64,000 nt of DNA from Spirochaetia bacterium (GCA_965198005.1 CBDAOI010000003.1:896001-960000); one strand, 5' to 3'. Positions 1,866-16,851 are shown, counted from the first letter of the stretch. The notes: generated by a model from the letters alone, not told the origin. Numbers and translations are program-made.

Positions 1866-2861
1866 ATGAGAGCCTATATCATCAGGCGGTTATTGCTGAT
1901 AATCCCCACCCTGTCTATATTGACCATCCTGGTCTTTCTTTCGGTCCGCTTCATCCCGGGCGATATAGTAGACGTAATGGTCAGAAGGATGGAATGGCTG
2001 GGTGGCGTAGACCGTGAAGCTCTTGAGCATATGCTGGGCTTAGACGTACCTGTGCACGTACAGTATGGACGCTGGCTAGGAGTGTTGCCGACCCCTGACT
2101 GGGTTACCGGTGAGTCCCACTTTAAAGGTCTCCTCCAGGGAACCCTTGGCGAATCACTGATGGGCGGTGGGACGGTGGAGGATAGGATATTAAATGCACT
2201 GCCGGTAACCATCGAGCTTGGTTTGTTGTCAATCGTAATCGGGCTAGTAATAGGGCTGCCAGTCGGCATCTACTCGGCGATTCGCCAGGATACGGCCGCC
2301 GACTACGTGGGGCGCACCGCGGCCGTCATCGGCATGGCAACTCCCAACTTCTGGCTGGGAACCATGGTCATGATCTTCCCGGTAATCTGGTGGGGCTGGT
2401 CGCCACCGATGAGGTGGTTTCCTTTCACCGAAGACCCGCTGGGGAATTTGGCGGTGTTGATCATTCCCAGCCTGATTCTGGGGACGGCCGCTTCTGCAGC
2501 CTCAATGCGGATGACGCGCACCATGATGCTGGAGGTGCTCAGGCAGGACTACATTAGGACTGCCTGGGCCAAGGGTCTCAAGGAGAGGGTAGTTGTTATC
2601 AGACACGCCATCAAAAATGCCCTCATCCCGGTAGTTACCCTGGTAGGCCTGCAGTTGCCTCTGCTGGTAGGTGGCTCCGTTATCATGGAGAACATATTTA
2701 ACCTGCCGGGGATGGGTCGTGTCATGCTGGATTCACTCGCTGAAAGAGACTACCCGGTGGTCTCCGGAATAAACCTGTTTTTGGCCACCGTGGTTATGGC
2801 GAACAATCTATTTATCGACCTGATTTATCCTTATTTAGACCCCAGGCTACGATACAGGTAG
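1866..2861 (+). CDS. dppB: ABC transporter permease, DppB/OppB type
   Basis: MRAYIIRRLL start, EAA loop DYIRTAWAKGL, C-terminal YLDPR. Confidence 0.92.
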   Translation: MRAYIIRRLLLIIPTLSILTILVFLSVRFIPGDIVDVMVRRMEWLGGVDREALEHMLGLDVPVHVQYGRWLGVLPTPDWVTGESHFKGLLQGTLGESLMGGGTVEDRILNALPVTIELGLLSIVIGLVIGLPVGIYSAIRQDTAADYVGRTAAVIGMATPNFWLGTMVMIFPVIWWGWSPPMRWFPFTEDPLGNLAVLIIPSLILGTAASAASMRMTRTMMLEVLRQDYIRTAWAKGLKERVVVIRHAIKNALIPVVTLVGLQLPLLVGGSVIMENIFNLPGMGRVMLDSLAERDYPVVSGINLFLATVVMANNLFIDLIYPYLDPRLRYR

Positions 2862-2874
2862 TGGAGGCGAAAGG

Positions 2875-3846
2875 ATGAGTCAGCTTAGAGATATCCCGCG
2901 AGAAGAAGCCGAAACGAAGAGGCGCCACGCCTTAGCCGATTTCTTCGTCAGGCTGGTCAAGGAGAAGCCACTGGGTACTGCCTGCGGGATTATCATATTG
3001 ATATTGATTCTGGTGGCTATCTTTGCCGATGTTCTGGCTCCTTATCCATATTGGGAACAACACCTGGTAGACAGGCTGCAGGGCTCATCAGCCCAGTATC
3101 TGCTGGGTACCGACCAGTTGGGGCGAGACTTCTTGAGCCGCATCATCATAGGGGCTCGTCTTTCCATAGTTGTCGGTCTGGCGGCGACCGCTCTCAATGT
3201 TGTCGTCGCTCTCCTGATAGGTGGCACTTCAGGATTCCTGGGTGGTAAACTGGACCTGGCTGTGCAAAGATTTGTCGATGCCTGGATGTCTTTCCCGGGA
3301 CTGCTCCTGTTGTTAACCATAATGTCCATAGCGGGGCGGGGTATACCACAGATAATAGTGGTCCTGGGGATAACAGGAGGCATCGGCGGCTCAAGAACAG
3401 TAAGAGGCGCCGTTATCGCAGTAAAAGAGAACGACTATTTTCAGGCAGCGGAGTCGATTGGCTCTTCAAAATGGAGAACATTTATCCGACATGTGCTTCG
3501 CAATATTGCGGCTCCCATAATCATTATATTAAGCATCAATATCGGGGGGGTGATTATGTCTGAGGCTTCTTTAAGTTTCCTCGGCTTTGGTCTGCCCATC
3601 GGGGTTCCCAGCTGGGGAGGTCTGCTCAGCCGGGAAGGGCGCCAGTTCATGGAGGATGCTCCCTGGCTGGCGCTCTGGCCGGGATTCTGCCTGACGATTG
3701 TCGTCTACAGTTTCAACATGTTCGGCGACGCGGTGAGGGACCTGCTTGATCCCAGGCTCAGGGGTGGCGCGGGGCATCCCGGTGCCTATGGCGCGAAGTC
3801 TGCTGAGAAAGCCAGGAAAAGACTGGAGTCCAGGGCAAACAAGTAG
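2875..3846 (+). CDS. dppC: ABC transporter permease, DppC/OppC type
   Basis: LGTDQLGRD, EASLSFLGFG...PSWG, GDAVRDLLDPR. Confidence 0.92.
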   Translation: MSQLRDIPREEAETKRRHALADFFVRLVKEKPLGTACGIIILILILVAIFADVLAPYPYWEQHLVDRLQGSSAQYLLGTDQLGRDFLSRIIIGARLSIVVGLAATALNVVVALLIGGTSGFLGGKLDLAVQRFVDAWMSFPGLLLLLTIMSIAGRGIPQIIVVLGITGGIGGSRTVRGAVIAVKENDYFQAAESIGSSKWRTFIRHVLRNIAAPIIIILSINIGGVIMSEASLSFLGFGLPIGVPSWGGLLSREGRQFMEDAPWLALWPGFCLTIVVYSFNMFGDAVRDLLDPRLRGGAGHPGAYGAKSAEKARKRLESRANK

Positions 3847-3979
3847 CGATGGGACTCGTCGAGAAAGCGGCTATTTCAGCCACACGTGCGATCGAGTACC
3901 CGAGCATTTCGTCAACGTCTCCTTTCTAACACACGCTGATCCAAAAGCACGGCAGCTGCAGGGTTTGTAGTACTCCAAT

Positions 3980-4853
3980 GTGGGCTTACAGCAGCAGGTG
4001 CCGCTACCGCAACCAACCCCAGAGCCCCACCCAGGCTATCTGCCACGGGCGCAGAACCTCCTGCAGCGCGTTTTCAAGGAGCACTTCTCGGAGTTTGCTG
4101 CTTGTTATGATGAGCGGTACGCGGGGCAGTACGGCAGGTTCAGGCTGGAGCGCATCCAGAAAGTGGCCCAGCGGTTCACCGTGTGCGGTGACTACGCTCG
4201 CGGTGTTGCCCGCATCCGGTGCACCAACACCGAATGTGGCCACGATCACTTTCGTCCCTTCAGCTGTAAACGTAAGCGAAGCGTCGTCGGATTTTACCTC
4301 TGTCCGTCCTGCTCCCAGAAACGCACCCTGCTGCTCTCGGAGTATCTCAGCGAGCGGCTGCTGCTGCGGCTGCCGCATCGTCAGTTCGTCTTCTCCTTCC
4401 CCAAGGCGTTGCGGGTGTTCTTCAAGTACAACCGGAGGCTGTTCTGTGCGGTCTCTCGGCTGCTGTTTGCCATCGTCCAAAGCTTCTACAACGAGGCTGC
4501 CGGGAACAAGGTGAGAACCGCAGCGGTGATCGCCTACCAGTCGTCGGGCGACCTTTTGCGGTTCAACCCTCACTTCCACGCCCTGATCCTGGAGGGCGCT
4601 TCGATGCAGCGGGCCGCTTCATCTTCATCCCCTTGGGCGATCTGGCCCGGATGACTCAATACCTGCGGCGCCGAGTGCTGAAGTTGTTCCTGGACAAGAG
4701 GTTGATCAGTCGGAGCTTCGCCGAGAATCTGCTGCGCTGGCGTCATTCCGGATTCAGCATCGACCATTCGGTGCGGCTGCACGCGCACGATCAGCAGGCG
4801 CGCTGGGCGCTCTCACAATACATCGCCCGCCCACCACTTTTCGCTGAAGAAGA
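3980..4853 (+). pseudogene. IS91-family (Y2/HUH) transposase, frameshifted near 4598 and 3'-truncated
   Basis: Zn-binding CGD...C..CGH...SCK...CPSC, HUH motif FNPHFHAL, then HSGFSID and YIARPP in the next frame; ends at the RIT junction. Confidence 0.85.
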
Positions 4854-5707
4854 AGCCATGCCCGAATCGTGTTGAGGTCCACGCCGGCACGCAACAGGTG
4901 AGTCGCCGTGGTGTGGCGAATCACGTGCGGGCTGACGCGCTTGCCGACCAGCGACGATACCCGGGCTGAGGCGACGGTCGCGCAGCGACCGACCAAGCGG
5001 CCGATGCCGAAGCGGGTGATCGGTTGTCCGTGCCGGTTGAGGAAGACCTGCTCCGCGGCAGGGCGCCCATCGACCAAAGCTGTCAGCAGGCGCGCCGTGC
5101 GCGGCCAGAGCGGGCACTGACGGACCTTGCCGCCCTTTCCGCGTACCGTTGCCAGAGAAGGATGCGACCCGGGGACGGTCAGTTGTAGATCGCCGACCGT
5201 GAGTTGCGCGGCCTCGGACGCCCGGACGCCGGTGTTGTAGAGGAACAGCAGCAGGGCACGCTCGCGGCGGCCCTGCCGCGTGCCGTGGTTGGGAGCGTCG
5301 AGTAAGGCGTCGATCTCGGACTTCTCCAGATAGGAGATCGGCTTGGGGGCCGCCTTCTTGCGGGGCAGAGCACGGATCTGCGTGCACCATTCGACGTGCT
5401 CGGGACTGCGGCTGCCGACGAAGCGGGCAAACGAACAGATGGCCGTGAGCCGCTGATTGCGGGTCTGCGGGGAGCAGCCCCGCGCATCTTCAAGATGTGC
5501 GAGGAACTGCAGCACACGCTCGGAGGTGAGATCGAAGACGGCCAGCCGGTCGACCGGTTTGCGCCGCGCGCGGCTGACGAAGGGGAGCAGCAAAACCAGC
5601 GTGTCACGGTAGCTGCGTTGAGTGTTGCGGGCCAGATTACGCTCACTCACCAGATGCTCCGCGAGGAAGCGTCGCAGCCAAGGGCCCAGAGTACGGGTAT
5701 CAGTCAT
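4854..5707 (-). pseudogene. RitC-like tyrosine recombinase truncated before the GH...Y motif
   Basis: YNTGVR, GKGGK, HVIRH present; protein diverges after NTIRAWL, so the catalytic Tyr is missing. Confidence 0.85.
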
Positions 5708-6653
5708 CGCGGCCTCCGGTTGCGGTCTCTGCGTAGCGCTCGAAGCGGAGCGAAGCCGCGCGCAGCAACTCAGGGGTCATGCTGAGATAGACAGCGGTTC
5801 CTGCGATGTTGACGTGGCCCAGGTAGGTGGAGAGGAATGGCAGCAAGCGTTGCACGTCCTTCCCTTGGCGGTACCAGGAGGTCAGTCGATGGACGGCGAA
5901 CGAATGTCGCAGGTCGTGCAGGCGCGGCTGACGGCGGGCTCCGACCGGGTTCCGCACTCCAGCCGCTTGGCGCAAAGCGGCGAACGCCGTGTGCACGGTT
6001 GTGCGCGCCAGCGGCGTGCCATCGCGATTCGCAAGGAAAGGCAAATCGTGCGCTGCATGGGCGGTGTAGGGCACCCGCCGCGCGACGTATTCCGCGAGCA
6101 CCTGGGTAAGGTGCGACCCCAGCGGCACGAGCCGGCTCTTGTAGAACTTGGTCTCGCGCACGGTGAGCAGCCCGGCCGGCAGGTCGACGTCGGCCTGCGT
6201 GAGCCGCCGCGCTTCGCCGTGCCGCAAGCCGGCTCCGTACAGCAACAGCAGCAGCGCGCGGAACGTGTGCGCCTGCAACTGCACCGCTCGCTTGCGACAG
6301 CCATCCACGGCGTCGAACAGGCGGCGCAGTTCGTCACGCGAATAGATGTACGCCGGTGCGGACGGGGGCTCCTTCGGTTCGTCCGCAGGCAACGGCGAAT
6401 GGGTCGCGTGGCCGCGGCTGATCGCATAGCGGTAGAAACCGACGAGCACCGTACGCTTGTTGGCCCGGTAGCGGGTGAGGAAGCCGTTGCCTGCGAGGAA
6501 GGCACGCGCCTGTTCGGTGCCTGCGGCGTCGCAGCCGACCTCGCCGCCGACGCTGCGGCAGTAGAGGTGCAGAATGCTGGCGCCGGACCTGAAGTGCGCA
6601 CCCCGCGCTTGCCGCCAAGCGATGTATTGATCAACGACCTCAGCGAGCGTCAT
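5700..6653 (-). CDS. RitB-like tyrosine recombinase
   Basis: Starts MTLAEVVDQY; YGAGLR, TKFYK, HDLRH, YLGH, TAVY all present. Confidence 0.88.
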   Translation of the reverse strand: MTLAEVVDQYIAWRQARGAHFRSGASILHLYCRSVGGEVGCDAAGTEQARAFLAGNGFLTRYRANKRTVLVGFYRYAISRGHATHSPLPADEPKEPPSAPAYIYSRDELRRLFDAVDGCRKRAVQLQAHTFRALLLLLYGAGLRHGEARRLTQADVDLPAGLLTVRETKFYKSRLVPLGSHLTQVLAEYVARRVPYTAHAAHDLPFLANRDGTPLARTTVHTAFAALRQAAGVRNPVGARRQPRLHDLRHSFAVHRLTSWYRQGKDVQRLLPFLSTYLGHVNIAGTAVYLSMTPELLRAASLRFERYAETATGGRDD

Positions 6654-7726
6654 ATCAGCCACTCCAGGTCGATGTCCGCCACTTGGCGCAGTCCGGCGAG
6701 ATCGACCTTGGCGTATACCGCCGTTGTGGTCGGGCTGCGATGCCCGAGATGGTCTCCGATCTCCTTGAACGACAGCCCTTGGTCCAACAGGCGCTGCGCG
6801 CATGCGTGGCGTAGCGCGTGTGGTCCTCGGCGCTGTGAGACGACCCCCAGGCGGCGCAAGCGACGGCTGACCAGAGCCTGCACTCCGGCGGTAGCAAGCG
6901 GGCGGAACGGGGCTCTGAGCGTGAGGAACAGGGCACGCTCGCCTCACCGGCGCGCAAGCCGTACACCGCGAACAGCAGCACCACGGCGCGGTCACGCTTG
7001 TCCGCAGGGCGCTCACCCTCGGTCGTCCCGAGCAAGCGCTGGACATCCTCCCAGGCCAGCCCCGCGGGGACCGTCTCGCCTTGGTACATGCGCTCCGGCA
7101 TGATTGCTGCGGCCAAGCCCGGCGCGCACCAGCCCCGCCCTTCGGCGTAGCGGAAGAATATGCGCAGGCGTTTTGCGTAGCTGCAGATCGAAACCCGAGC
7201 ACATCTGCCGCTGGCGCTCTGCTCGGCCACGAACCGATCCAGGTCCGCGATCGCAAGCGTGTGCAGTGGTCGATCCTGATCGCGGAACCGACTGAGGAAC
7301 TCGTCCACTATCCAGCAGCGGCTGTGGATCGTGTGCTCGGACAAACCGCATTCCCGCCGCATCCAGTCGGCAAACGCCGCGACCTTCGGCACATGCTGAT
7401 GGCGCGCAACAACCGGTGGCACCTCCAAGCGGCCCAGGAAGCGCAGCCACCGCGCCGCCCGCGCCACGAACACCGCTACGGCGGCCGGCTTGGCATGCTT
7501 GCCCGCCCGCCGCAGGCGTGGCAGCGCCCACTGCACGGCTGCAGCTTCGACCTGCGCAAGCTGGACCTTGCCGTTGCCCTCCCGCAAATCCAGCAAGCGC
7601 ACGACCTCAACCTGATTGCCGGCAATCTTGCGCAGGGTCGAGCGTTTGGCTCCCAACTTGAGCCAGTGCCTGAGATAGCGCAGGCGGCTATCCGCAAGGG
7701 GCGCCGTCCGGTACTGCTCGACCGTG
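6650..7726 (-). pseudogene. RitA-like tyrosine recombinase with internal deletion/frameshift (~6940), 5' end cut by IS21
   Basis: N-part up to YGLRAGEA in one frame; HALRH...LGH...TAVY C-part (6650-6883) in another; middle missing. Confidence 0.82.
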
Positions 7727-8245
7727 TGCAGATTCCGGTGCAAAAAAGCCACTGATTCCGTTTTGAGAGAGCCAGCCGTCCGGAAATAAAAAGCCACCCG
7801 TCCGGCGGAAAAAAGCCACTTGGAGGCTGATTTCCGGACGGGGTCGGCCGATCCTCCGCTACGCTCCCCCCAAAACCTTATAGGAGGGAGTCGCATGGCA
7901 CGCAGGAGGATTCGCGTGGAGAAGATCAAAGAGGTCATCCGCTACGGGGTGACCACCGAGCTCAGTGAGCGAGCGATTGGACGAGCGCTGAAGGTCTCGC
8001 GCACGGTGGTGGCGAAGTACCTGGAGTGGTTCCGCGACAGCGGACTGAGCTGGGAGCAGGCGCAGGAGCTGCCCGACAGCAAGCTGCTGACCGTATTGGA
8101 GGGCACGCGCGCCCCGGAGACGAACGCGCGCTATGAGCGACTGGCCGAACGGTTTCCGACGATGGTCAAGGAGCTGCGGCGCAAGGGAGTAACGCTGCAG
8201 TTGCTCTGGGAGGAGTACCAGCGCGCGCACCCTGACGGCTACCAG
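7727..8245 (+). mobile_element. istA: IS21-family left end plus 5' fragment of istA (7895-8245)
   Basis: Starts TGCAGATTCCGG; four AGCCA-core repeats at ~22-bp period (7748, 7771, 7793, 7815); MARRRIRVEKIKEVIR HTH and KGVTLQLLWEEY...PDGY typical of IstA. Confidence 0.85.
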
Positions 8246-8397
8246 TGTTGCCCGCCAGGTGAGATTTCCGAGATGTGGACAAATCCGCCAGTGGGGGTAG
8301 GATAGGTTCGCCCGGGAAGCGTTCCGGAGATCACGAAAAAAGATAGGGGCCACCGCCAGTACTTACTCCGGGTACAACGGTGACCCCCACCTAAAAG

Positions 8398-9072
8398 CTG
8401 GATCATCCTAAACTAGACGGCTTCGACTTTCAAGCCTACCGCCAATCCCTGATCAGAGAAGGCGGCAAGCGTCCCTGCGTGCTGTGCGGGGAGAGCCATG
8501 CGGTGGTGATTCATTGCTACTGCAAACGCCTGGTGCGGTGCACCGACGGCAGTAATCACCAACACCTGATCGTGGTGATCATCTGTGAGCGGGCGCGGGA
8601 AGCGGGCACCCAGTACACCAAACGCATGCTGCCGTGGTTTGTGATTCCCGAGTGCAACATCAGGCTCGACCTGGTGCTCGAGCTGCGGAAGAAGCACCCC
8701 ACGGCCGGCAGCGCGCGTGACCACGGCTACGCGGTGATCGGCAGCGCCTGTGAGCGCACCATAGCGCGTCATCTGCTGTGGGTGGACGACAACATCGCAG
8801 CGATGCTGCTGGAGGTGAACGAGTGGGTGGCCGAGCTGGCGCCGTTCACCGCCTTGCCACCGGTGCGCGTGGGCGAAGATGCGCTGGCGCAGTTGCGGCG
8901 CTCAGTGGCCGCGCTGGAGAAGGCCAGACAGGCCGCGCTCACCGCCATCGGAGTAGCGTTCACCGTTATCGGCTGCGTTCACCTCGCCTACGTCGCGGAG
9001 CGCGCCCGGAGCCCCCCGCCGATTTCATTGAGTTTAGTATTTCGAGGCGGCTGTTGGTTTGATACCACTTAA
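8398..9072 (+). CDS. Transposon ORF1, putative Zn-binding protein (DUF6431-like); start uncertain (CTG 8398 or GTG 8479)
   Basis: Frame open from 8395; PCVLCG...H..IH...R....C...TKRMLPWFVIP pattern. Confidence 0.6.
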   Translation: MDHPKLDGFDFQAYRQSLIREGGKRPCVLCGESHAVVIHCYCKRLVRCTDGSNHQHLIVVIICERAREAGTQYTKRMLPWFVIPECNIRLDLVLELRKKHPTAGSARDHGYAVIGSACERTIARHLLWVDDNIAAMLLEVNEWVAELAPFTALPPVRVGEDALAQLRRSVAALEKARQAALTAIGVAFTVIGCVHLAYVAERARSPPPISLSLVFRGGCWFDTT

Positions 9073-9691
9073 GCATCCACCCACAGGAGGCATCAAAGTG
9101 GATCAACTACTGGTTTCCCCCGACCGTTTGGCGCAGCTGGAAGAGCTGCTGCTGCTCTTTCATCGGATCTTGACCGAACCGACGCCACCGCCACGCCGCC
9201 GCGACTGGTTGCTGGAGCATTGCCGGCGCAGGAGCGCCGATGAGCGCGATCTGTGGCGTGCCCTGGCTGGCTACCGCAGCAGCGATGCGACGGCGTTGCT
9301 GCATGCCGACCACACCCGGGGGTCGATCTTCAGCCGCCAGGCGGCGCTGGTGCGGGAGAACATTCTGAGCCAGCTCATCGATGCTCCCCAGTGCGTGCTG
9401 GGCGGGTTCGATGAACTCTCCCAGCTGCTGCAGCTGATCGGCGACCGGTTGCAGTTTCTCTGTGACTGGGTGCTGGAGTTGTTCCTCACTCCCGAGCCGT
9501 GGCAGCCGCTCGATTCACACCACCTGGAGGTAGCCGGCGAGGTGCTGCTGCAGAAGCTCGCCGAGGAGGTCGAGCGCCTGCGTGAGCTGTACGCTGAGCA
9601 GCCCCGCCTGTCCCTCGACGAGCTCACCAGCGAGTACCGCGATTGGCTGTGCCGGCGGGCCGTCGTCGGCGAGCGCGAGGACCTCGAATGA
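9059..9691 (+). CDS. Transposon ORF2, hypothetical helical protein
   Basis: 210-aa ORF overlapping ORF1 and coupled (ATGA) to the transposase. Confidence 0.65.
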   Translation: MIPLKHPPTGGIKVDQLLVSPDRLAQLEELLLLFHRILTEPTPPPRRRDWLLEHCRRRSADERDLWRALAGYRSSDATALLHADHTRGSIFSRQAALVRENILSQLIDAPQCVLGGFDELSQLLQLIGDRLQFLCDWVLELFLTPEPWQPLDSHHLEVAGEVLLQKLAEEVERLRELYAEQPRLSLDELTSEYRDWLCRRAVVGEREDLE

Positions 9692-10388
9692 GCGGCCCCG
9701 ACTTCCCTTGGGAGCAGATCCCGGACGCGGCCATGGAGGCGTTTGACGAACGCCTGCGCTTGGTCGAGATGCTGCTCGACCCGCACATCGGGAACGCCGA
9801 CAAACGCGCGGAACGCCGGCGCTACTGCGAGCAGCATCGGGTTGGGGAGCGCACCATCAGAGGCTACCTCCACCGCTATCGCAAGAAGGGCCCCCGGGGG
9901 CTGCTGTTCTACCGGCCGCGGCCCACCTCGCCTCGCGTCCACGATCCTGGGCTGCGCGCCAAGCTCCTCGCGCTGGTCAACGAGCTGCCCACCAGGAGCG
10001 TCCCCCAACTGCGCAAGCTGCTCGCCACCGACGATCAGTTGGGCAGCAAGATCAAACGCATCTCAGATCGCACCATCTACCGCTTCCTGGCCGAGCAGGG
10101 TCTCACCCAACAGGTCCGCTACCGCATGCTCGCTGAAGACTCGCGCAGCTCCTACCGCTCGTTCGAGGCACCGCACTCCCTGGCCCTCCTGCAGGCCGAC
10201 GCCCGCGACGGCATCTGGCTCGACACCCCCCAAGGCCGCAAGAAAACCTACCTGTTCCTCTGGATCGACGACTTCTCCCGCAAAATCCTGTTCGGCAAGT
10301 ACTATTTCGACGAGAAGCTGCCCGCCCTGATGGACAGCTTCCGCTATTGCGTCCTGCGTTACGGCGTGCCGGTTCGGTGCTACGTCGA
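9688..10388 (+). pseudogene. DDE (rve/Mu-type) transposase, N-terminal part, interrupted by RIT
   Basis: HTH motifs, LLQAD, WIDDFSR, YGVP..CYVD. Confidence 0.88.
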
Positions 10389-10475
10389 TTATCCCGAAAA
10401 AAATGAAATGCCGAAGTTTGTCGGTAACTTGTTTCCACACAAACAGATAGCGTTGCAAACTTCGGCATAACATTG
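10383..10475. repeat. RIT terminal inverted repeat (left)
   Basis: 90/93 identical to the reverse complement of 13771-13863; internal ATGCCGAAGTTTG...CAAACTTCGGCAT dyad. Confidence 0.95.
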
Positions 10476-10481
10476 GGGCTC

Positions 10482-11510
10482 TTAGAGGCCGCACAGCCGC
10501 CTCAGACTCTCCTCATTCTTCCAGGCGGGTGTTTCGTCCGCCAGCCCGGGATCTGCTTGCTCCATGGCTTTGCGCAGCATCGCGACGTCCGCGGAGGCAT
10601 AGATCTCAGTGGTAGTCACGCTTGCATGTCCCAGGAATTCCGCAATGTAGGGAAGCGGCATTCCGGACTGATAGAGGTGCATCGCTCGGCTATGTCGAAA
10701 CAGATGGGGGTGCACTCTCGGCGGCACCTCAGCGCATGCCGTGCGCGCGCTTTCGCCGTATTTTTTGACCAAAACGCTGATCGCATCGGTGGATAGCATG
10801 TGCGGCCTTCCTGCGCGAACGGAATAGAACAGCGGCACTTCGTGACGGTCGACGGAACCAGCATGGAATTGCCGTACATACTCCTTCAGATGGGCAACGG
10901 TCTTGTCCATGAGCGGAACACTTCTGGTTTTGTTGCCTTTGCCGGTCACCAGTACGAATGGGTTTCCTGCATCCAGATGGAAGTCGGTGACGCGCAAGTC
11001 GACCAGCTCTTGAACCCTGGCTCCTGTGTCGTATAGCAGAATCATGATCATCCTGTTCCGTCTCCCCTTTACGGTTGTCTTATCAGGTTGAGCGAGCACC
11101 GTCCTCAGGGCCGTCTGCGACAGGTAACCGACCGGCGTCCGGGCCATCTTCAGTAATGGAATCTTTTTCACCTCCTGGAACACACTATAGAGGCTGACGT
11201 CTTCATCCGCACAGTATCTGAGGAATGCCTTGAGAGCGGATAGTCTGAGATTGCAGGTTGCGACTCCGCACGGCCTCTGGCGCAGCCACTGAATGTACTT
11301 GATCACCGAGTCTCGCGTGAAGTGATCCCATGATACATTCGCGAACTTGATCCGATGTTGTGCTTCGAGGAAGTCGCAGTACATGCCTATCGATCGTCTG
11401 TAGGAGTCAACGGTGTGCGCACTGCAACAGCGTATTTTCGGCAACTGGACCGTGAGGTAATCGCGTACACACTTCCAGAATTGTTGTCCCGGTGTGCTAT
11501 TCCTGATCAT
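10482..11510 (-). CDS. RitC-like tyrosine recombinase
   Basis: YDTGAR, GKGNK, HLFRH, LGH, TEIY. Confidence 0.92.
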   Translation of the reverse strand: MIRNSTPGQQFWKCVRDYLTVQLPKIRCCSAHTVDSYRRSIGMYCDFLEAQHRIKFANVSWDHFTRDSVIKYIQWLRQRPCGVATCNLRLSALKAFLRYCADEDVSLYSVFQEVKKIPLLKMARTPVGYLSQTALRTVLAQPDKTTVKGRRNRMIMILLYDTGARVQELVDLRVTDFHLDAGNPFVLVTGKGNKTRSVPLMDKTVAHLKEYVRQFHAGSVDRHEVPLFYSVRAGRPHMLSTDAISVLVKKYGESARTACAEVPPRVHPHLFRHSRAMHLYQSGMPLPYIAEFLGHASVTTTEIYASADVAMLRKAMEQADPGLADETPAWKNEESLRRLCGL

Positions 11511-12465
11511 GGTCCACCTCCGGAAGAACGGCCTCGGTTGCGCTCACCTTTGTTGCGAATGTAGCGAAGAACTCGGGAACCAGGTGAAGGTAGTAATCGG
11601 TACTCGTCAGGCTGGCGTGTCCCATGTACCTGCTGAGATAGGGGAGCATGGCGTTGACCTCAACACCGGTCGCGATCCACCTGTTCAGATTGCTCAGCGC
11701 AAAATGATGCCTGAAGTCGTACGCGCGCGGTCGGTTGCCGCATCCGGGTCCCAGGCCCGCCGCCTTCCAGATGCTGTTGAATACCGCTGCTACTCTGCTG
11801 CGGCTGTAGCAATCCGATCTCGTTGTCGGGAAAAAGTAGATTCTCCCGGGATATACCTCGGACACCCGTGCGGCATATCTACAGAGCAGACCCAGAACGT
11901 CGTCCGGCACCGGAAGTCTGCGACTTCTGCAACCCTTCGACCACATGATGTCGATATATCCGGTTTGCAGATCAACCTGCTCGACGCGCAGCGTTCTTGC
12001 CTCACCGGTCCTCAGGCCACAGCAATACAGGAGGCGGAAGAATACTGGGAGGACCAGATGTCGCGCCTGCGCCGCCCCCCGGGGCTGAAGCTTGTCGCAG
12101 GCAACGAAAAATGCCGTAATCTCTTGGTGAGTGAAGAAATGAGGCACGTACCTAGCGGCGGCACGGATGCCAGCAGCCGGAAGCACGAAGGCATCTGCAA
12201 CGCCGATCGACTGCATATACTTGCCAAGTTCGCGGAGCGGCGATAGCCGGGTACGATGCGCTGCCGGATTCTCCCCGTCCTTGGCTTTCGCCCAGCCGCG
12301 AACCAACTCTCTGCTGAGGGATTGGTAGGCGGGATGAAGCGCTGCGTATCTGTCGAAGTCGTGGAGTTTGAACTCAGCGCTCTCGTAGGAGTAGCCGACG
12401 GCGCGCTTGGTCGCGACCAGTCCCGAGATAAAGGGTGCAAACAGGCTTGAGTATGCGCTACTCAT
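11497..12465 (-). CDS. RitB-like tyrosine recombinase
   Basis: Start MSSAYSS overlaps the upstream stop (ATGA); YCCGLR, YDFRH, YMGH, TDYY. Confidence 0.9.
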   Translation of the reverse strand: MSSAYSSLFAPFISGLVATKRAVGYSYESAEFKLHDFDRYAALHPAYQSLSRELVRGWAKAKDGENPAAHRTRLSPLRELGKYMQSIGVADAFVLPAAGIRAAARYVPHFFTHQEITAFFVACDKLQPRGAAQARHLVLPVFFRLLYCCGLRTGEARTLRVEQVDLQTGYIDIMWSKGCRSRRLPVPDDVLGLLCRYAARVSEVYPGRIYFFPTTRSDCYSRSRVAAVFNSIWKAAGLGPGCGNRPRAYDFRHHFALSNLNRWIATGVEVNAMLPYLSRYMGHASLTSTDYYLHLVPEFFATFATKVSATEAVLPEVDHDQE

Positions 12466-13697
12466 GACAGGCCTGCGCAGTCCACGGGAATCTGGGCGAG
12501 GTCCAACACACACTCTCTCATGCGCTCTTGGTCGGTCGCCAAGTAGACGTCGGTCGACTCTTTGTGGGCGTGTCCAAGCATGGTCGAAATGGTAGTAACT
12601 GGGACCCCCTTGGAGAGCATCCTGGAGGCCGCAGAGTGACGCAGGACATGGAGTCCCTTGCGTTCGCTACCAACCCTTATCCCGGCTTGGAGGAAGGCGC
12701 TCCGAAGCACCGCATAACAGGTCGCATGGCCTGACAGAACGGTGAACGGGGCTAGACAACGAAGGAATACATACGGCGTGTCGGCTGATGGACGCTCATC
12801 AAGCAGATAGGCGGACAGTGCATTGCCAACATCCGCGGTCAGCGGGATCTTGAAGGCGATTCCGGTCTTTGACTGGGCGATTGCGATGGTGTCATTGACC
12901 CAGTCGATATCTGTGAGTTTGATCCTCAGGATGTCTACGGAGCGCAATCCGGTTCGCAAGGCCAACAGGATGATGGCCTTATCCCGAAGCCGGAGTTGCC
13001 CGTTCTGCAGCACCTTTTTCAGTGCATCATTTTCGTGGTCCAAAAGGATCGGTATGATTGGCCTGTTTCTGACACAGCGTGAAGGGACTGCCAATAGCAG
13101 CCGTTCTTCGGTTTCTGAGAATCTGAGAAACAAGCGGATGTTCGAGGCAACGGTACGAATACTGGTGGGCCGGTATGTGGCGAGCAGATGCTGGAAGAAA
13201 GCAGGTACCATAGCGGCGCTGGCGAGCGTCAGCGAAGTGCAGTCGTGGTCCTCCAGGAACAACAGGAATTGGCGGACTGCGTTGGCGCAAGACTGTATCG
13301 TATTCGCGCTCTTGTTCGTGGCTCCAAGCTCGTCCATGAAGCTCTCATGCAGGAGCAGCAATTCTTTCGACTTGGGCATCGGCTGGCGGTCGAATGTGTA
13401 CGTGGTCCATCTGATTGATCCGTTGGCGACGTATTCTTGCAGTATCAACGATGCTCGTCTGAGATGGTTTCGTCTGCCACGTCCGATTGCGCCCGCCTCG
13501 TGCTGTTCCTCTAGGTCATGCAGGAAACCTTGGATCAGACTGTCGCAGAAAAGTTCGACGTTGCGTGCGGCTGCGTACTGCTTGAGCCGCCTATATGTTT
13601 GTCGATAGTGGTTGATCGTTGCCGGGTCAAGGCCGAACTTTCCGATCTCCTGAAGAACGCTCTCGACAAGATCGTCCAAGCACAGGTTGGTGTGCAT
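12462..13697 (-). CDS. RitA-like tyrosine recombinase
   Basis: TGLR, QSKT, HVLRH, LGH, TDVY; GGAGG RBS upstream. Confidence 0.92.
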   Translation of the reverse strand: MHTNLCLDDLVESVLQEIGKFGLDPATINHYRQTYRRLKQYAAARNVELFCDSLIQGFLHDLEEQHEAGAIGRGRRNHLRRASLILQEYVANGSIRWTTYTFDRQPMPKSKELLLLHESFMDELGATNKSANTIQSCANAVRQFLLFLEDHDCTSLTLASAAMVPAFFQHLLATYRPTSIRTVASNIRLFLRFSETEERLLLAVPSRCVRNRPIIPILLDHENDALKKVLQNGQLRLRDKAIILLALRTGLRSVDILRIKLTDIDWVNDTIAIAQSKTGIAFKIPLTADVGNALSAYLLDERPSADTPYVFLRCLAPFTVLSGHATCYAVLRSAFLQAGIRVGSERKGLHVLRHSAASRMLSKGVPVTTISTMLGHAHKESTDVYLATDQERMRECVLDLAQIPVDCAGLS

Positions 13698-13770
13698 TGA
13701 AGCACCTCCTTGAATGATGTCCAGATCAGGGTCTGGCTCTGCTCATCCTGGACCGTGCCCTTGCAAGCGG

Positions 13771-13889
13771 CAATGTTATGCCGAAGTTTGCAACGCTAAC
13801 TGTTTGTGTGGAAACAAGTTACCGTCAAACTTCGGCATTTCATTTTCTTCGGGATAATCGACGAAATGCCGAATTCGGCATTTCGTCGA
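13771..13889. repeat. RIT terminal inverted repeat (right) plus overlapping perfect 32-bp palindrome
   Basis: IR at 13771-13863; TCGACGAAATGCCGAATTCGGCATTTCGTCGA at 13858-13889. Confidence 0.95.
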
Positions 13890-14592
13890 CAACGGAAAAG
13901 TTTACATCTCGCGCCACATGATGGCCATCCTGGTCGAGTTACAGGTCAAACGAGTGCGCCACCCGCCCTATCAAAGCTATTGCAAGGGGAAAGTCGAGGC
14001 CGCCAACAAGATCATCAAGAACCAGTTCCAACGCGAGGCCCAAGTCGCCGGGATGCGTACTCTCGATGAACTGAACTCCGCCTTCTGGGCCTGGATGGAT
14101 CTGGAATACAACGTCCGCGTCCACTCAGCCACCGGCCAGAGTCCCGATGCACGTTTCCGCGACGGGCTGCCCGCCGACCACCGCCGGATCACCGATCTGG
14201 AGACCTTCAACGCCCTGTTCCTGTGGCGCGAACGGCGCACCGTCACCAAGTATGGCAGGATCAAGCTGCACGGCAACCAATACCCCGTCACCAGCGTCCC
14301 CCATGGCAGCGTCGTCGAGGTCCGCTTCGACCCCTACGACCTCGCCCAGCTGGCCATCTACGACCCCGGCGGCGGCCTGCTGGAGACCACCAGCGCTTCC
14401 AAACAGGTCACCACACAGGTGCCGGCGGTCCCCGAGGAGTCCCGCGCCAAGCCGCCTGAGGTGTCGGCCGCCGCCCGGGACTACTTCACCCGCCTGCGCG
14501 AGCAGCACCACGCCCGGCTCCGCGACCGTAACCAGACTTCGTTCAGCCAGTTCCGCACTACCCCCAAGGAGCACCACGATGCAGATGCATGA
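13890..14592 (+). pseudogene. DDE transposase, C-terminal part (Mu transposase C-terminal domain)
   Basis: Resumes (D)NGKVY; PYQSYCKGKVE, YN.RVHSATGQSP, VEVRFDPYDL. Confidence 0.88.
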
Positions 14593-15376
14593 TCACGTCC
14601 TCTCCTTCTTCGGCTTCTCCCGCCTGCCGTTCGGCAAGCACCTCCAGCCCGCCGACACGTTCCCCTCTGCCGCCCATCAGGAGGCGCTCTCCCGCCTCTC
14701 CTTCGGCGTCGCCGACGAGGATCTCCTGCTCCTCACCGGCCCCATCGGTTGCGGCAAGTCGGTCGCCCTCGCCGCCTTCGTCAGCGAACTCGACGGCAAC
14801 CGCTACCGCCCCCTCTACGTCCGCGGCGCCGGCCTCTCGGAAGCCCAGCTCTACAAGGCGATCCTCGATGAGTTGAAGATCGATCCGCCGTTCTTCGCCG
14901 GCCAGGCCAAGCAGCTGTTCTTCAAGACCATCCCCGAGCTGACCAAGAAACCACTAGTCATCCTCGACGATGCTCAGGACCTTGCGGCCACCGCCCTGAC
15001 GGCCATCAAGAACATGGTCAACTTCGCCTTCGACACCAAAAACTCCATCACCTTCGTCCTCGCCGGCCAACCCGAGCTGCGCGAGTTGCTCAGATATGTT
15101 TCCTTCGCTTCCTTGCGCCAGCGCATCCGTATCTCCTATCACATGCCGGCCATGGCTCTGGAGGAGACCTGTCGCTACATCGACCACCACACCGTCCGCT
15201 GTGGCCGCCCTGCCTCGATCTTCGCCGATGATGCCAAAGCTGACATTCACCGCCACGCCGGCGGCGTTCCGCGCCTGGTCAACGCCGTCTGCTATCGCTC
15301 CATCCTGCGTGCCGCCGTCAACGATATCCGCATCATCGACTCCACCAACATCGTTGCCGATGAACTCCACGACTAA
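14579..15376 (+). CDS. ExeA-like AAA+ ATPase (TnsC/IstB analogue)
   Basis: FFGFSRLPF, Walker A GPIGCGKS, Walker B VILDDAQ, LAGQPEL, GVPRLVN. Confidence 0.9.
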   Translation: MQMHDHVLSFFGFSRLPFGKHLQPADTFPSAAHQEALSRLSFGVADEDLLLLTGPIGCGKSVALAAFVSELDGNRYRPLYVRGAGLSEAQLYKAILDELKIDPPFFAGQAKQLFFKTIPELTKKPLVILDDAQDLAATALTAIKNMVNFAFDTKNSITFVLAGQPELRELLRYVSFASLRQRIRISYHMPAMALEETCRYIDHHTVRCGRPASIFADDAKADIHRHAGGVPRLVNAVCYRSILRAAVNDIRIIDSTNIVADELHD

Positions 15377-15490
15377 ACCGCGACAGCCGGCACCGCTGGC
15401 GTTCGCCGCTGGCGGACACCAGCATCACAGGCTGGCACGCGCTGGCAACCCTGCTTGGCACGGTTTGGAAACGGCGGCTGGCTGGAAACA

Positions 15491-15738
15491 CCCTCGGGGT
15501 ATCGATCACCGACGGCGCCAAGATGCTCGGTGTAACGCGGAAGGCCCTCTCGGAGCTCGTAAATGGCCGGGCTGGGTTGAGTCCTACGATGGCCCTTCGG
15601 ATCGCGAAGGCGACCAACACTTCGCCGGAAAGCTGGTTCAGGATGCAGGCGAATCTCGACCTCTGGGAGGCGCGGAAAAAAGAACCACACAACGTAACCA
15701 GATTCCCGAAACAGCCAGTAACAGCAGCACACTCGTAG
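15491..15738 (+). pseudogene. higA: HigA-family antitoxin, 5'-truncated by the transposon end
   Basis: LGVTRKALSELVNGR...MALRI...SWFRMQ HTH signature. Confidence 0.8.
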
Positions 15739-16851
15739 CGACGCCCTCGCCGGCGCGGCGACGCCTCGCGCCGGTCTAGCCCGACCGCTCCATCTTCTGC
15801 AGCGCCTTGCGGGCCCTCTCGTCGGCGCGGGCACCCACGCCACCGCCCACCGCCCACCGACCCGCCGCTGCCGCGCAGCGGCGGGTCGCGCAGGTCGCGC
15901 AGCGCGTCGCGAACTCGTCAGCCTAGAAGCACGTTACAGCGGCCCTCTTCCTCATCCCGCTGTCTTAAGTCAGTACCGGGAGATTCAGCCCGCTGTGATT
16001 GCCTGGGTCAAGCCGACGAACCACGCCGGTGTGAGCTCTTCGTTGACTACGCCATTCGGGATGCCGCCCAGGTGGTCACGCGCCGGAGCACGGGCGGCCG
16101 TCCCACCCTCCCACCAACGTGCGACGGATCGGCCCAAGATGTCTTCGCGCTCGATCATCCCGGCGCTTCCACCTTCAGCTTCGCCACCGCCGCACCCACC
16201 CGGCACCTCCCGCGGTATCACGCTGGAGGAACGGTGACCTCCACCCGTGGCTCCATCCTTGGCGCCACGGCTGGCTACTCCGGAGGCGCGCCCGGAACGC
16301 GCCCGACCAGGTCGACGAGCGCCGGGGTTCGGTATGGGCGTGACCTGGCCGGTCAGCTCGAAGCGGATGGTGCTGGCATCGTATGCACCGAGTAAGTGGC
16401 TCGATAGAGCTGGCTCCGAGAAGCGCGCCAGGTGTTGAGCCGGGCGACCGGCGACCGCACCGATCTCGACGCTGGTCTCTCGTACGTCTCTCATCGGCGC
16501 ACTCTCAATACTCGTCGTCACAGCGAAGGCGGGCACTAGGTACCTCATCACATGACTGACGCGTCGTCCGTTCGTGGGCTCCGTGACCGGACAGTGCGGG
16601 CCATCGGAGAGATGTGGCGTTCGCGGCCGAGCGACGCTAACTGAGAACGTCAGTCTGCGACTGGCGCTGGCGCTAAGGCCGTTTCCAATCAACCGAGACA
16701 CGGTCGGTCGCGAACAAGGGGCCTTGGTTCCTACCACTAAGTCCACGAAACCGACACGAAGAAACACGAAGGAATCCCAGGAGGGAACACCGTAGACGTA
16801 GGGTGGGCGTGTCTACCCCTCTTCGTTAGACTGCGAGGCCAACAGAATCCA

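Follow-up and report, generated by a model that had tools for sequence, protein, structure and literature searches.

The window analysed here is the whole stretch of 64,000 nucleotides (nt) from a Spirochaetia bacterium (GCA_965198005.1 CBDAOI010000003.1:896001-960000), with positions counted from its first letter, and our subject is a transposon found in it at 8246-15490. These 7245 base pairs (bp) constitute a single transposon copy, with a unit of ~3743 bp, plus an inserted recombinase-in-trio (RIT) element of 3.5 kb. A reading previously made from the sequence alone (hereafter, the original prediction) had described a TGT...ACA transposon with a DDE transposase, an ExeA-like ATPase and two unexplained open reading frames (ORFs) but no TniQ. 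The four co-oriented genes that it named are present, that of the transposase being interrupted by the RIT, and the features are laid out as follows (aa, amino acids; HTH, helix-turn-helix):

8246-8361: left end, with the terminal inverted repeat TGTTGCCCGCCAG at 8246-8258 and inward-facing GCCAG sites at 8254, 8287 and 8355; the terminus is the same in all copies.
8276-8303, plus strand: promoter-like TGGACA-16-TAGGAT (consensus scan, 9/12; pattern match only), with the second GCCAG site inside its spacer.
8380-9072, plus strand: ORF1, ~230 aa, Cys/His-rich and putatively DUF6431-like, with an in-frame TAA at codon 5 (8392-8394).
9098-9691, plus strand: ORF2, 197 aa, predicted to be all-helical, a paralogue of the N-terminal DNA-binding region of the transposase.
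9688-10388, plus strand: N-terminal part of the transposase (HTH_32/HTH_29 and the start of the DDE core; Pfam), with the last residues ..RCYVD.
10389-13884, minus strand: RIT element within the transposase gene, with tyrosine recombinase genes at 10482-11510, 11497-12513 and 12462-13697 (three Phage_integrase matches; Pfam).
13885-14592, plus strand: C-terminal part of the transposase (remaining DDE core and Mu-transpos_C; Pfam).
14579-15376, plus strand: AAA+ ATPase of the AAA_22 type, ExeA/GspA-like and Mu B-like, its start overlapping the transposase stop.
15377-15490: right end, with six inward-facing GCCA[AG] sites (motif count) and the terminal inverted repeat CTGGCTGGAAACA at 15478-15490.

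We searched the window's own genome (4.89 Mb in 4 contigs, 90% complete) by BLAST with the two parts that flank the RIT, the left one up to 10387 and the right one from 13874. This recovered seven full-length copies, including that of the window, the other six spanning 3389-3800 bp, along with two partial copies, a right-hand fragment of 1.7 kb and a left-end fragment of 0.34 kb. The copies are 94-99% identical, start with (T)GTTGCCCGCCAG and end with ..GG(A/C)AACA; all their starts and stops coincide with the bases named in the original prediction, and none ends elsewhere. Because seven independent copies end identically, the boundaries of the element are fixed. The RIT is absent from the other six full copies, and the element proper contains no ORFs beyond the four. 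The predicted TGT...ACA transposon is thus a real, multi-copy entity with common termini and sub-terminal site arrays. It is autonomous and has multiplied in this genome, and the window carries an inactivated copy, dead because the RIT split its transposase gene.

Among the genomic copies, c4 is intact in its four frames and at its two termini, c5 has four open frames and a damaged left terminus, and the remaining ones bear frameshifts, deletions or the RIT. Further, the element lies at many sites in contigs of the runs X1 and X2, and the RIT-less junction 10382|13884 is found both in X2 and in a contig from the RNA library X15. Two metatranscriptome libraries of a single study, X15 and X16, have contigs with parts of the ORF1, transposase and ATPase genes, a hint of transcription that is weak because DNA carry-over is possible; the contigs of these RNA libraries do not cover the ORF2 region and are uninformative about it. 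Related copies or fragments occur in three of ten other genomes of the genus, all of them diverged (76%); therefore, the seven-copy burst is specific to the window genome.

The ends of the element are of the TGTTNCCNGCCAG type and, as originally proposed, form imperfect terminal inverted repeats, with TGTTGCCCGCCAG and CTGGCTGGAAACA matching at 11 of 13 positions; every sub-terminal core listed at the time is likewise present. Inward-facing GCCA[AG] occurs three times in the left 120 nt, at 9, 42 and 110 nt from the end, and six times in the right 120 nt, at 9, 32, 45, 55, 78 and 91 nt from the end (CTGGC or TTGGC at 15478, 15455, 15442, 15432, 15409 and 15396), with not a single occurrence in the opposite orientation within the two 120-nt ends. 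The nine inward sites compare with 0.8 expected (genome average 0.41 per 120 nt), for which the Poisson P of 2e-7, both ends taken jointly, is generous as the motif was picked post hoc. The interior shows no excess (14 and 10 counted against 12 expected), and the positions of the sites are kept in two relatives, L025 and L026, that are only ~76% identical at the DNA level. The same two relatives retain the TAGGAT and the spacing of the promoter-like site, which was recognised with a sigma-70-like consensus. Contigs of X1, X2 and X16 link 15367 to 15444, skipping 76 nt (15368-15443) that hold three of the right-end sites; this join may reflect other copies whose right end is a variant or has diverged. 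An Rfam search at E up to 0.1 found no RNA families in 7800-16000.

The enzymatic core pairs a Mu-type DDE transposase with an AAA+ ATPase, and a Pfam scan of the ORFs upholds both this pairing and the claimed lack of TniQ: neither ORF1 nor ORF2 contains any Pfam family at E up to 1, hence no TniQ. The intact transposase, seen as a 482-aa frame in copy c6 (L020:2395-3843), combines HTH_32, rve (PF00665, E 2e-7) and Mu-transpos_C (PF09299, E 1.2e-11) domains. The ATPase matches AAA_22 (E 7.7e-17), stays below threshold against the ExeA-like NCBIfam model and has no TniB- or TnsC-specific family among its Pfam matches. In PHROGs, the transposase is assigned to phrog_310 ('transposase', E 1.6e-46) and the ATPase to phrog_296 ('DNA transposition protein', E 1.9e-14), which, going by the family names, we read as the Mu A and B families. 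Sequence searches of the PDB returned retroviral integrase cores and, weakly, IS21 IstA for the transposase, and for the ATPase P-loop stretches only, with no TnsC, TniB or MuB chain. A TnsA-like second nuclease or a resolvase domain was also not found among the four ORFs by Pfam. The family belongs to the superfamily of Mu, Tn552 and Tn7-Tn5053, that is, DDE transposons with an AAA+ partner.

Each of these archetypes shares a part of the plan of the element. Apart from the matches to the Mu-like A/B families of PHROGs, the element is unlike phage Mu in comprising 3.7 kb without phage genes and in the ~130 residues of its ORF2 that form the paralogous region. Like the Tn7-like and Tn5053 elements, it ends in TGT/ACA, has putative transposase sites arrayed unequally at its two ends, and encodes a DDE enzyme of the TnsB/TniA type, complete with a Mu C-terminal barrel, next to an AAA+ protein that would be the regulator; unlike them, it has no TniQ/TnsD, TnsA, resolvase (TniR) or cargo, and its target duplication of 6-7 bp (see below) departs from their 5 bp, on which grounds we rejected membership in this group. 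Tn552 pairs a DDE transposase with an ATP-binding protein and duplicates 6-7 bp of its target, both of which agree with the element; membership in Tn552 was nevertheless rejected because the element has no resolvase, whereas Tn552 has one along with a res site. The long terminal repeats and the cargo of Tn552 are further differences, as is its lack of ORF1 and ORF2.

These comparisons bear on the possibility that the element is a plain member of a catalogued family (IS481, IS21, Tn6049, Tn552 or Tn5053), which we consider very improbable. The best NCBIfam model is indeed that of IS481 (NF033577), but at 134 bits against a cut-off of 224, and all insertion sequence (IS) family models fall far below their cut-offs. 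IS21 was rejected with IstA (NF033546) at 41.5 against 160 bits, IstB (NF038214/PF01695) at 17 against 200 bits and no IstB_IS21 match in Pfam. The assertion that this is not a catalogued IS therefore holds for the curated IS-family models, with ISfinder lying outside the comparison. Neither a resolvase, as in Tn552 and Tn5053, nor TniQ is present.

The strongest case for a catalogued relative is made by Tn6049, the closest named element found and a distant kin. Passages of two papers describe Tn6049 of Cupriavidus metallidurans CH34 as a 3.5-kb element in 12 copies with a gspA-like ATPase gene, 12-bp TGT..ACA repeats and reported 4-bp direct repeats (PMC2864759, PMC4739549). The record NC_007971 annotates it with a small 'transposase', an IS481-family transposase and an AAA ATPase. 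Both elements measure ~3.5 kb, are multi-copy and have imperfect TGT...ACA inverted repeats; in both, a small ORF precedes the DDE transposase gene, which an AAA_22 gene for a GspA/ExeA-like ATPase overlaps at its downstream end. However, the proteins are only 24-25% identical (24% over 205 aa, E 1e-14, for the transposases; 25%, E 9.2e-12, for the ATPases), and the Tn6049 transposase passes as an IS481 family member without a Mu-transpos_C match, unlike ours. The upstream ORF of Tn6049 is unmatched to ORF1 (hhalign 2.4%), there is no equivalent of ORF2, and the 4-bp repeats reported for Tn6049 differ from the 6-7 bp here; the two do not fall into one family by any of the thresholds applied. 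The four-gene family was not found described in the literature searched, most subscription journals, ISfinder and TnCentral being outside that search; Tn6049 exists as a distant named relative, so that the general kind is not undescribed.

The four-gene set is itself conserved. ORF1 and ORF2 are parts of the element and not passengers, because the gene order recurs across phyla. The order ORF1, ORF2 slot, transposase and ATPase is seen at 6 of 10 loci in species-representative genomes, whose record titles name Spirochaetia (2), Dehalococcoidia, Deltaproteobacteria, Desulfobacteraceae and Pirellulales; the remaining four loci are degenerate or at contig ends. Of 80 metagenome loci, 51 extend at least 1600 nt downstream of ORF1, and 44 of these have the catalytic part of the transposase after it; 31 extend at least 2900 nt, and 25 of them have the ATPase there. 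Exceptions to the order include two truncated loci and one in which a RIT pushed the ATPase off the contig. The supposed co-occurrence of the two ORFs with the transposase-ATPase pair is accordingly the rule in most metagenome loci. Both ends could be called by script (16-nt TGT../..ACA ends with at least 12 matching) at 14 of ~25 loci with ORF1 and ATPase, and all 14 span 3538-3795 bp and start with TGTT, mostly followed by ..CCTGCC... More generally, when 1.84 billion cluster representatives were searched with a profile, ORF1 relatives were recovered in 188 clusters (50% identity) at E up to 0.001; in the first homologue search, no relative bore a name or a Pfam domain.

The two accessory ORFs are of different provenance. 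By profile comparisons, ORF2 is a duplicate of the HTH region of the transposase without the catalytic core. At the locus L028, ORF2 and the N-terminus of its own transposase are 30% identical over 128 aa (BLASTP E 4e-11), and hhalign of the ORF2 profile against the N-terminal profile of the transposase gives 97.2% (E 4.4e-11, 129 columns), with L028 contained in the ORF2 alignment. The paralogy is visible in the profiles and in L028 only, the pairwise similarity having faded in the window genome, whose ORF2 gives no significant BLASTP match to its own transposase. The structure model of ORF2, which also has 197 aa in its relatives, is poor (pLDDT 61.5) and yielded nothing by Foldseek and no usable match in the ESM Atlas; a predicted complex of the ATPase, ORF2 and ORF1 scored 0.00 and is uninformative in either direction. 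Since ORF2 is a paralogue of the transposase N-terminus, regulation or end binding is favoured over target choice, and ORF2 is probably an end-binding regulator. Analogues of such a protein are the Mu repressor, which shares its N-terminal DNA-binding fold with MuA (where it is to be compared with domain I-alpha), OrfA of IS911 and Inh of Tn5. The original notion of a target-selection or regulatory module thus gains, through this paralogy, on its regulatory, end-binding side as regards ORF2; no result shows target selection by either protein.

The same DNA-binding region in ORF2 lends itself to a narrower explanation, namely that ORF1 and ORF2 only regulate the expression of the transposase operon, as a repressor and an antirepressor acting outside the transpososome. 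The overlap of the promoter-like site with an end site would agree with this, as would the relaxed constraint on both ORFs within the window genome (see below) and their faster evolution, with 51-58% identity to L025 and L026 against 79-80% for the transposase and ATPase. Yet such a pair should be easily lost and is instead kept across phyla at 31-37% identity, and DUF6431 proteins accompany such transposases even without ORF2; we accordingly hold this explanation to be doubtful.

ORF1 relatives are 230-237 aa long, start with MTPTR(E/K)L.HPKL and cover the frame entirely from 8395. The TAA at codon 5 is present in all 8 left ends of the genome, including an old, 94%-identical fragment, and its position is occupied by Arg in relatives at 72-73% identity. 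There is no ATG, GTG or TTG between this TAA and 8479, and a start at 8479 would cost ORF1 the first Cys of its C-x2-C motif. In the AlphaFold2 model (pLDDT 80.7, pTM 0.77), an N-terminal helix is followed by a long beta-hairpin bearing the conserved C-x2-C-G..H....H / C motif, three short helices at the invariant G..ERTI.RH segment, which we read from the model as helix-turn-helix-like, and then long helices; the C-terminal tail ..FDT[ST] is invariant. The model found no match in the PDB by Foldseek (best E 0.19), and a VIA search of 48,161 chains gave a best Z of 3.4 with the N-terminal Cys/His domain barely covered.

On mixed evidence, it is quite probable that ORF1 is distantly homologous to DUF6431. 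In the space of ESM features, its score is 0.95, with 25 of 30 matches falling in DUF6431 clusters. By hhalign, the ORF1 family aligns to one Pfam-positive DUF6431 protein at 78.8%, or 93.7% with a more diverse profile, and to a second, Streptomyces, one at 55.6%; further, 4 of 27 distant members of the family touch PF20020 below the cut-off (best E 0.0012). The genomic context is comparable: the Streptomyces plasmid NZ_CP109471 encodes, in order, a Pfam-positive DUF6431 and HTH_23 protein, a Mu-type DDE gene, a 92-aa ORF and an AAA_22 gene. Like the element in the window, it thus has a Zn-ribbon and HTH protein upstream of an HTH/rve/Mu-transpos_C transposase (30% identical) and an AAA_22 ATPase; it differs in lacking ORF2, in the 92-aa ORF between transposase and ATPase and in a DUF6431 protein that passes the Pfam threshold, which ORF1 does not. 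No inverted repeats were found for this Streptomyces element. At L038, too, a DUF6431 protein lies upstream of an ORF with integrase-like motifs (read by eye). The literature on DUF6431 yielded only incidental papers, with the name in neither title nor abstract. The Cys/His character originally ascribed to ORF1 stands, and ORF1 is probably not an orphan. Elsewhere in the genome (G000:C3:809068-809238; L035 ~1501-1671), DUF6431 is matched at 22.4 bits, short of the cut-off of 26.6, by a stretch adjoining the truncated copy p8 and part of a further ExeA-like ATPase gene.

We take ORF1 for a probable accessory or adaptor protein that binds DNA. In a stronger form of the target-selection reading of the original prediction, ORF1 would be a functional replacement of TniQ, detecting a feature of the target and bringing in the AAA+ ATPase, and ORF2 would be a second selector or co-factor. 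The Cys/His and HTH-like make-up of ORF1 resembles TniQ in kind, ORF1 heads an operon in which the ATPase co-occurs at 25 of 31 loci, its tail is invariant, and several insertions lie within mobile-element genes. This version is nonetheless unlikely in our estimate: ORF1 has no sequence match to TniQ (Pfam, E up to 1), the known target sites have no evident common sequence, insertions in mobile DNA may be merely the tolerated ones, and the element spread here despite the stop at codon 5 of ORF1.

The mode of movement is informed by the flanks of the copies, which in the window are:

7820-8245, plus strand: left flank, a 5' fragment of an IS21-like istA, cut at the first base of the element (repeat structure).
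15491-15738, plus strand: right flank, the 3' part of an HTH_3 (HigA-like) gene, 5'-truncated at the last base of the element (Pfam).

The element thus cuts unrelated genes at both ends, as had been noted, with istA on the left and a higA-like gene on the right. The 200 nt preceding 8246 are 100% identical to another IS copy, and two other IS copies in the genome run past the istA cut point with other sequence; the istA fragment has no match in Pfam, its IS21 label deriving from the original prediction and the repeat structure. On the right, the reading frame of the flanking gene enters the element upstream of 15523.

Clean target duplications, found at three sites, give a length of 6-7 bp, which the original prediction had left to be defined. 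Copy c3 is flanked by CCCTGCT (7, or 6 plus 1), and the corresponding site in three genomes of the same genus shows a single CCTGCT at the start of the homologous gene, the far flank not being conserved; the other two are 6-bp duplications in finished chromosomes, CGGTGC in L025 and GCTGGA in L026. Copy c5 has an imperfect repeat along with its damaged left tip. Duplications from short metagenome contigs (0/14) were discarded as evidence because the two flanks can derive from different copies. The known target sites CCCTGCT, CGGTGC and GCTGGA have no evident common sequence; as to mobile-element genes, the element has entered the IS21 istA here and, in L026, a Zn-finger gene of IS91-like type, and in L031 it lies between genes of IS3 and IS630. 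As there is neither a second nuclease nor a resolvase, nick-and-join (replicative) transposition is expected, and replicative transposition followed by adjacent deletion would be the simplest reading. Since the remainder of istA adjoins no other copy, an adjacent deletion is plausible behind the absent duplication of the window copy; of the two claims first made on this point, the absence is confirmed and the deletion is plausible, though unproven.

Taken together, we favour, with moderate confidence, a Mu/Tn552-type element with two accessory proteins that would work as follows. The N-terminal HTH domains of the transposase would bind the GCCA[AG]-containing arrays, three sites on the left and six on the right, and the transposase would pair the TGT/ACA ends and join them to the target with a 6-7-bp stagger. 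The ATPase, by analogy to MuB or TnsC, would be the target-DNA-bound activator. Replicative transposition within one chromosome may lead to adjacent deletions, which would leave most copies without flanking duplications. ORF2 is proposed to be a regulator that binds the ends or the promoter and either competes with the transposase or helps it; the position of the second left-end site inside the promoter-like element would be in keeping with this. ORF1, with its DUF6431-like Cys/His beta-hairpin, HTH-like segment and long helices, is predicted to be a DNA-binding accessory subunit and the best candidate for the role of TniQ, whether by linking DNA to the ATPase as an adaptor or by acting in assembly.

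A number of observations weigh against this proposal. With respect to movement, there is no duplication at the window copy, c2, c4, c6 and c7 (5 of 7 full copies); a check by eye for recombination or inversion found no left flank that matches the right flank of any other copy; and the replicative mode is deduced solely from missing genes. No listed contig bridges the outer junctions of the window copy with at least 31 nt on each side, and assembly error may explain the joins. With respect to the gene set, three related contigs (L142, L143 and L145) carry ORF1 and ORF2 followed by IstA-like (rve and Mu-transpos_C_2) and IstB_IS21 genes, an arrangement that may be a nested IS21 or a swapped module, and two near-identical ones (L140 and L141) carry a solo ORF1 surrounded by housekeeping genes, namely those for a glycosyl hydrolase, an AIR-synthase-like protein and an aminotransferase. 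ORFs of 146-150 aa, unrecognised by tblastn, fill the ORF2 slot in L030 and L031. With respect to the accessory proteins, the Pfam DUF6431 model (PF20020) has no match to ORF1, a profile of close ORF1 relatives scores only 1.5% probability against the Streptomyces DUF6431 protein, and the element multiplied although every copy has the TAA at codon 5. For neither ORF1 nor ORF2 does a structural match point to an activity. Lastly, the ratio of nonsynonymous to synonymous polymorphism (pN/pS) among the copies in the genome, from small counts and non-independent pairs, reaches 0.77 in ORF1 and 0.74 in ORF2 but 0.17 in the transposase and 0.24 in the ATPase; therefore, these helpers may be dispensable or decaying here. 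Synonymous divergence among the copies is 3-6 times higher in the right half, and these values suggest that the copies are mosaic and that constraint on ORF1 and ORF2 is relaxed in the window genome.

The DDE and AAA+ transposons, such as Mu, Tn7 and the CRISPR-associated elements, are the best-understood targeted DNA-insertion machines and are becoming genome-engineering tools, and in them an accessory subunit sets the place and time of insertion. The present family packs four genes and no cargo into a compact 3.7 kb, is widespread in uncultivated bacteria and recently active, and has two uncharacterised accessory proteins, one of which is linked to a DUF that accompanies such transposases in several phyla. 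Once known, the roles of ORF1 and ORF2 would provide a function for DUF6431 and possibly another mode of control for such transposases. A bolder conjecture, which we rate as rather unlikely, is that DUF6431-type Cys/His and HTH proteins are the third subunit of a large unstudied branch of the Mu/Tn7 superfamily, doing the job of TniQ with an unrelated fold, here alongside the repressor-like ORF2; if true, target choice and control in DDE/AAA+ transposition would here have been solved in a new way.

The RIT that silenced the window copy presents a pattern of its own. Its inverted repeats of 108 nt are 92% complementary, a 22-nt palindrome lies at 13864-13884, and GTCGA, the core, stands both at 10384-10388 and at 13885-13889. 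The insertion interrupts the transposase at ..RCYVD|NGKVY.., the codon of the second catalytic Asp. Two further copies of this RIT, 94% identical, lie elsewhere in the genome (three in total). One of them splits a different, barely related rve-type gene at ..FFLD|KGPGF, a gene paired with an AAA_22 gene 28% identical to that of the element; this FLD|KG site is equated with YVD|NG by way of the DDE motif, as the two proteins have no significant pairwise BLASTP match. The third adjoins ..AFFID| in a gene remnant. Further, another RIT splits the transposase of the family at ..HCKG|KIE.., the motif of the catalytic Glu, in the Desulfobacteraceae relative L030 and in the metagenome contig L113, two insertions that may share ancestry. 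The coordinates of these RITs are:

L071: ~2777-6246.
L072: ~3123-6598.
L030: ~2140-5640.
L113: ~2670-6160.

Each RIT junction has the same layout: core, left inverted repeat, right inverted repeat, inverted core, a 20-22-nt palindrome derived from the inner motif of the repeat, and core. According to a 2012 paper, a relative of Tn6049 has RITs within its transposase gene (PMC3414803), and in a 2023 paper the RIT column of a comparison table is marked as not formally tested (PMC10214605). Our observations suggest site-specific homing of RITs into rve-type transposase genes paired with AAA_22 ATPases, at codons of the catalytic motifs. Such recurrent insertions at catalytic codons may offer a first handle on the target choice of RITs.

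Two other features lie beside the element in the window. To its right, a ~90-nt repeat at ~16270-16390 recurs with 85-95% identity more than 20 times, spread over the four contigs, and resembles a miniature repeat family. To its left, beside the istA fragment, two long overlapping ORFs on the minus strand (5700-7938) display, by eye, tyrosine-recombinase-like motifs and may be another recombinase cluster.

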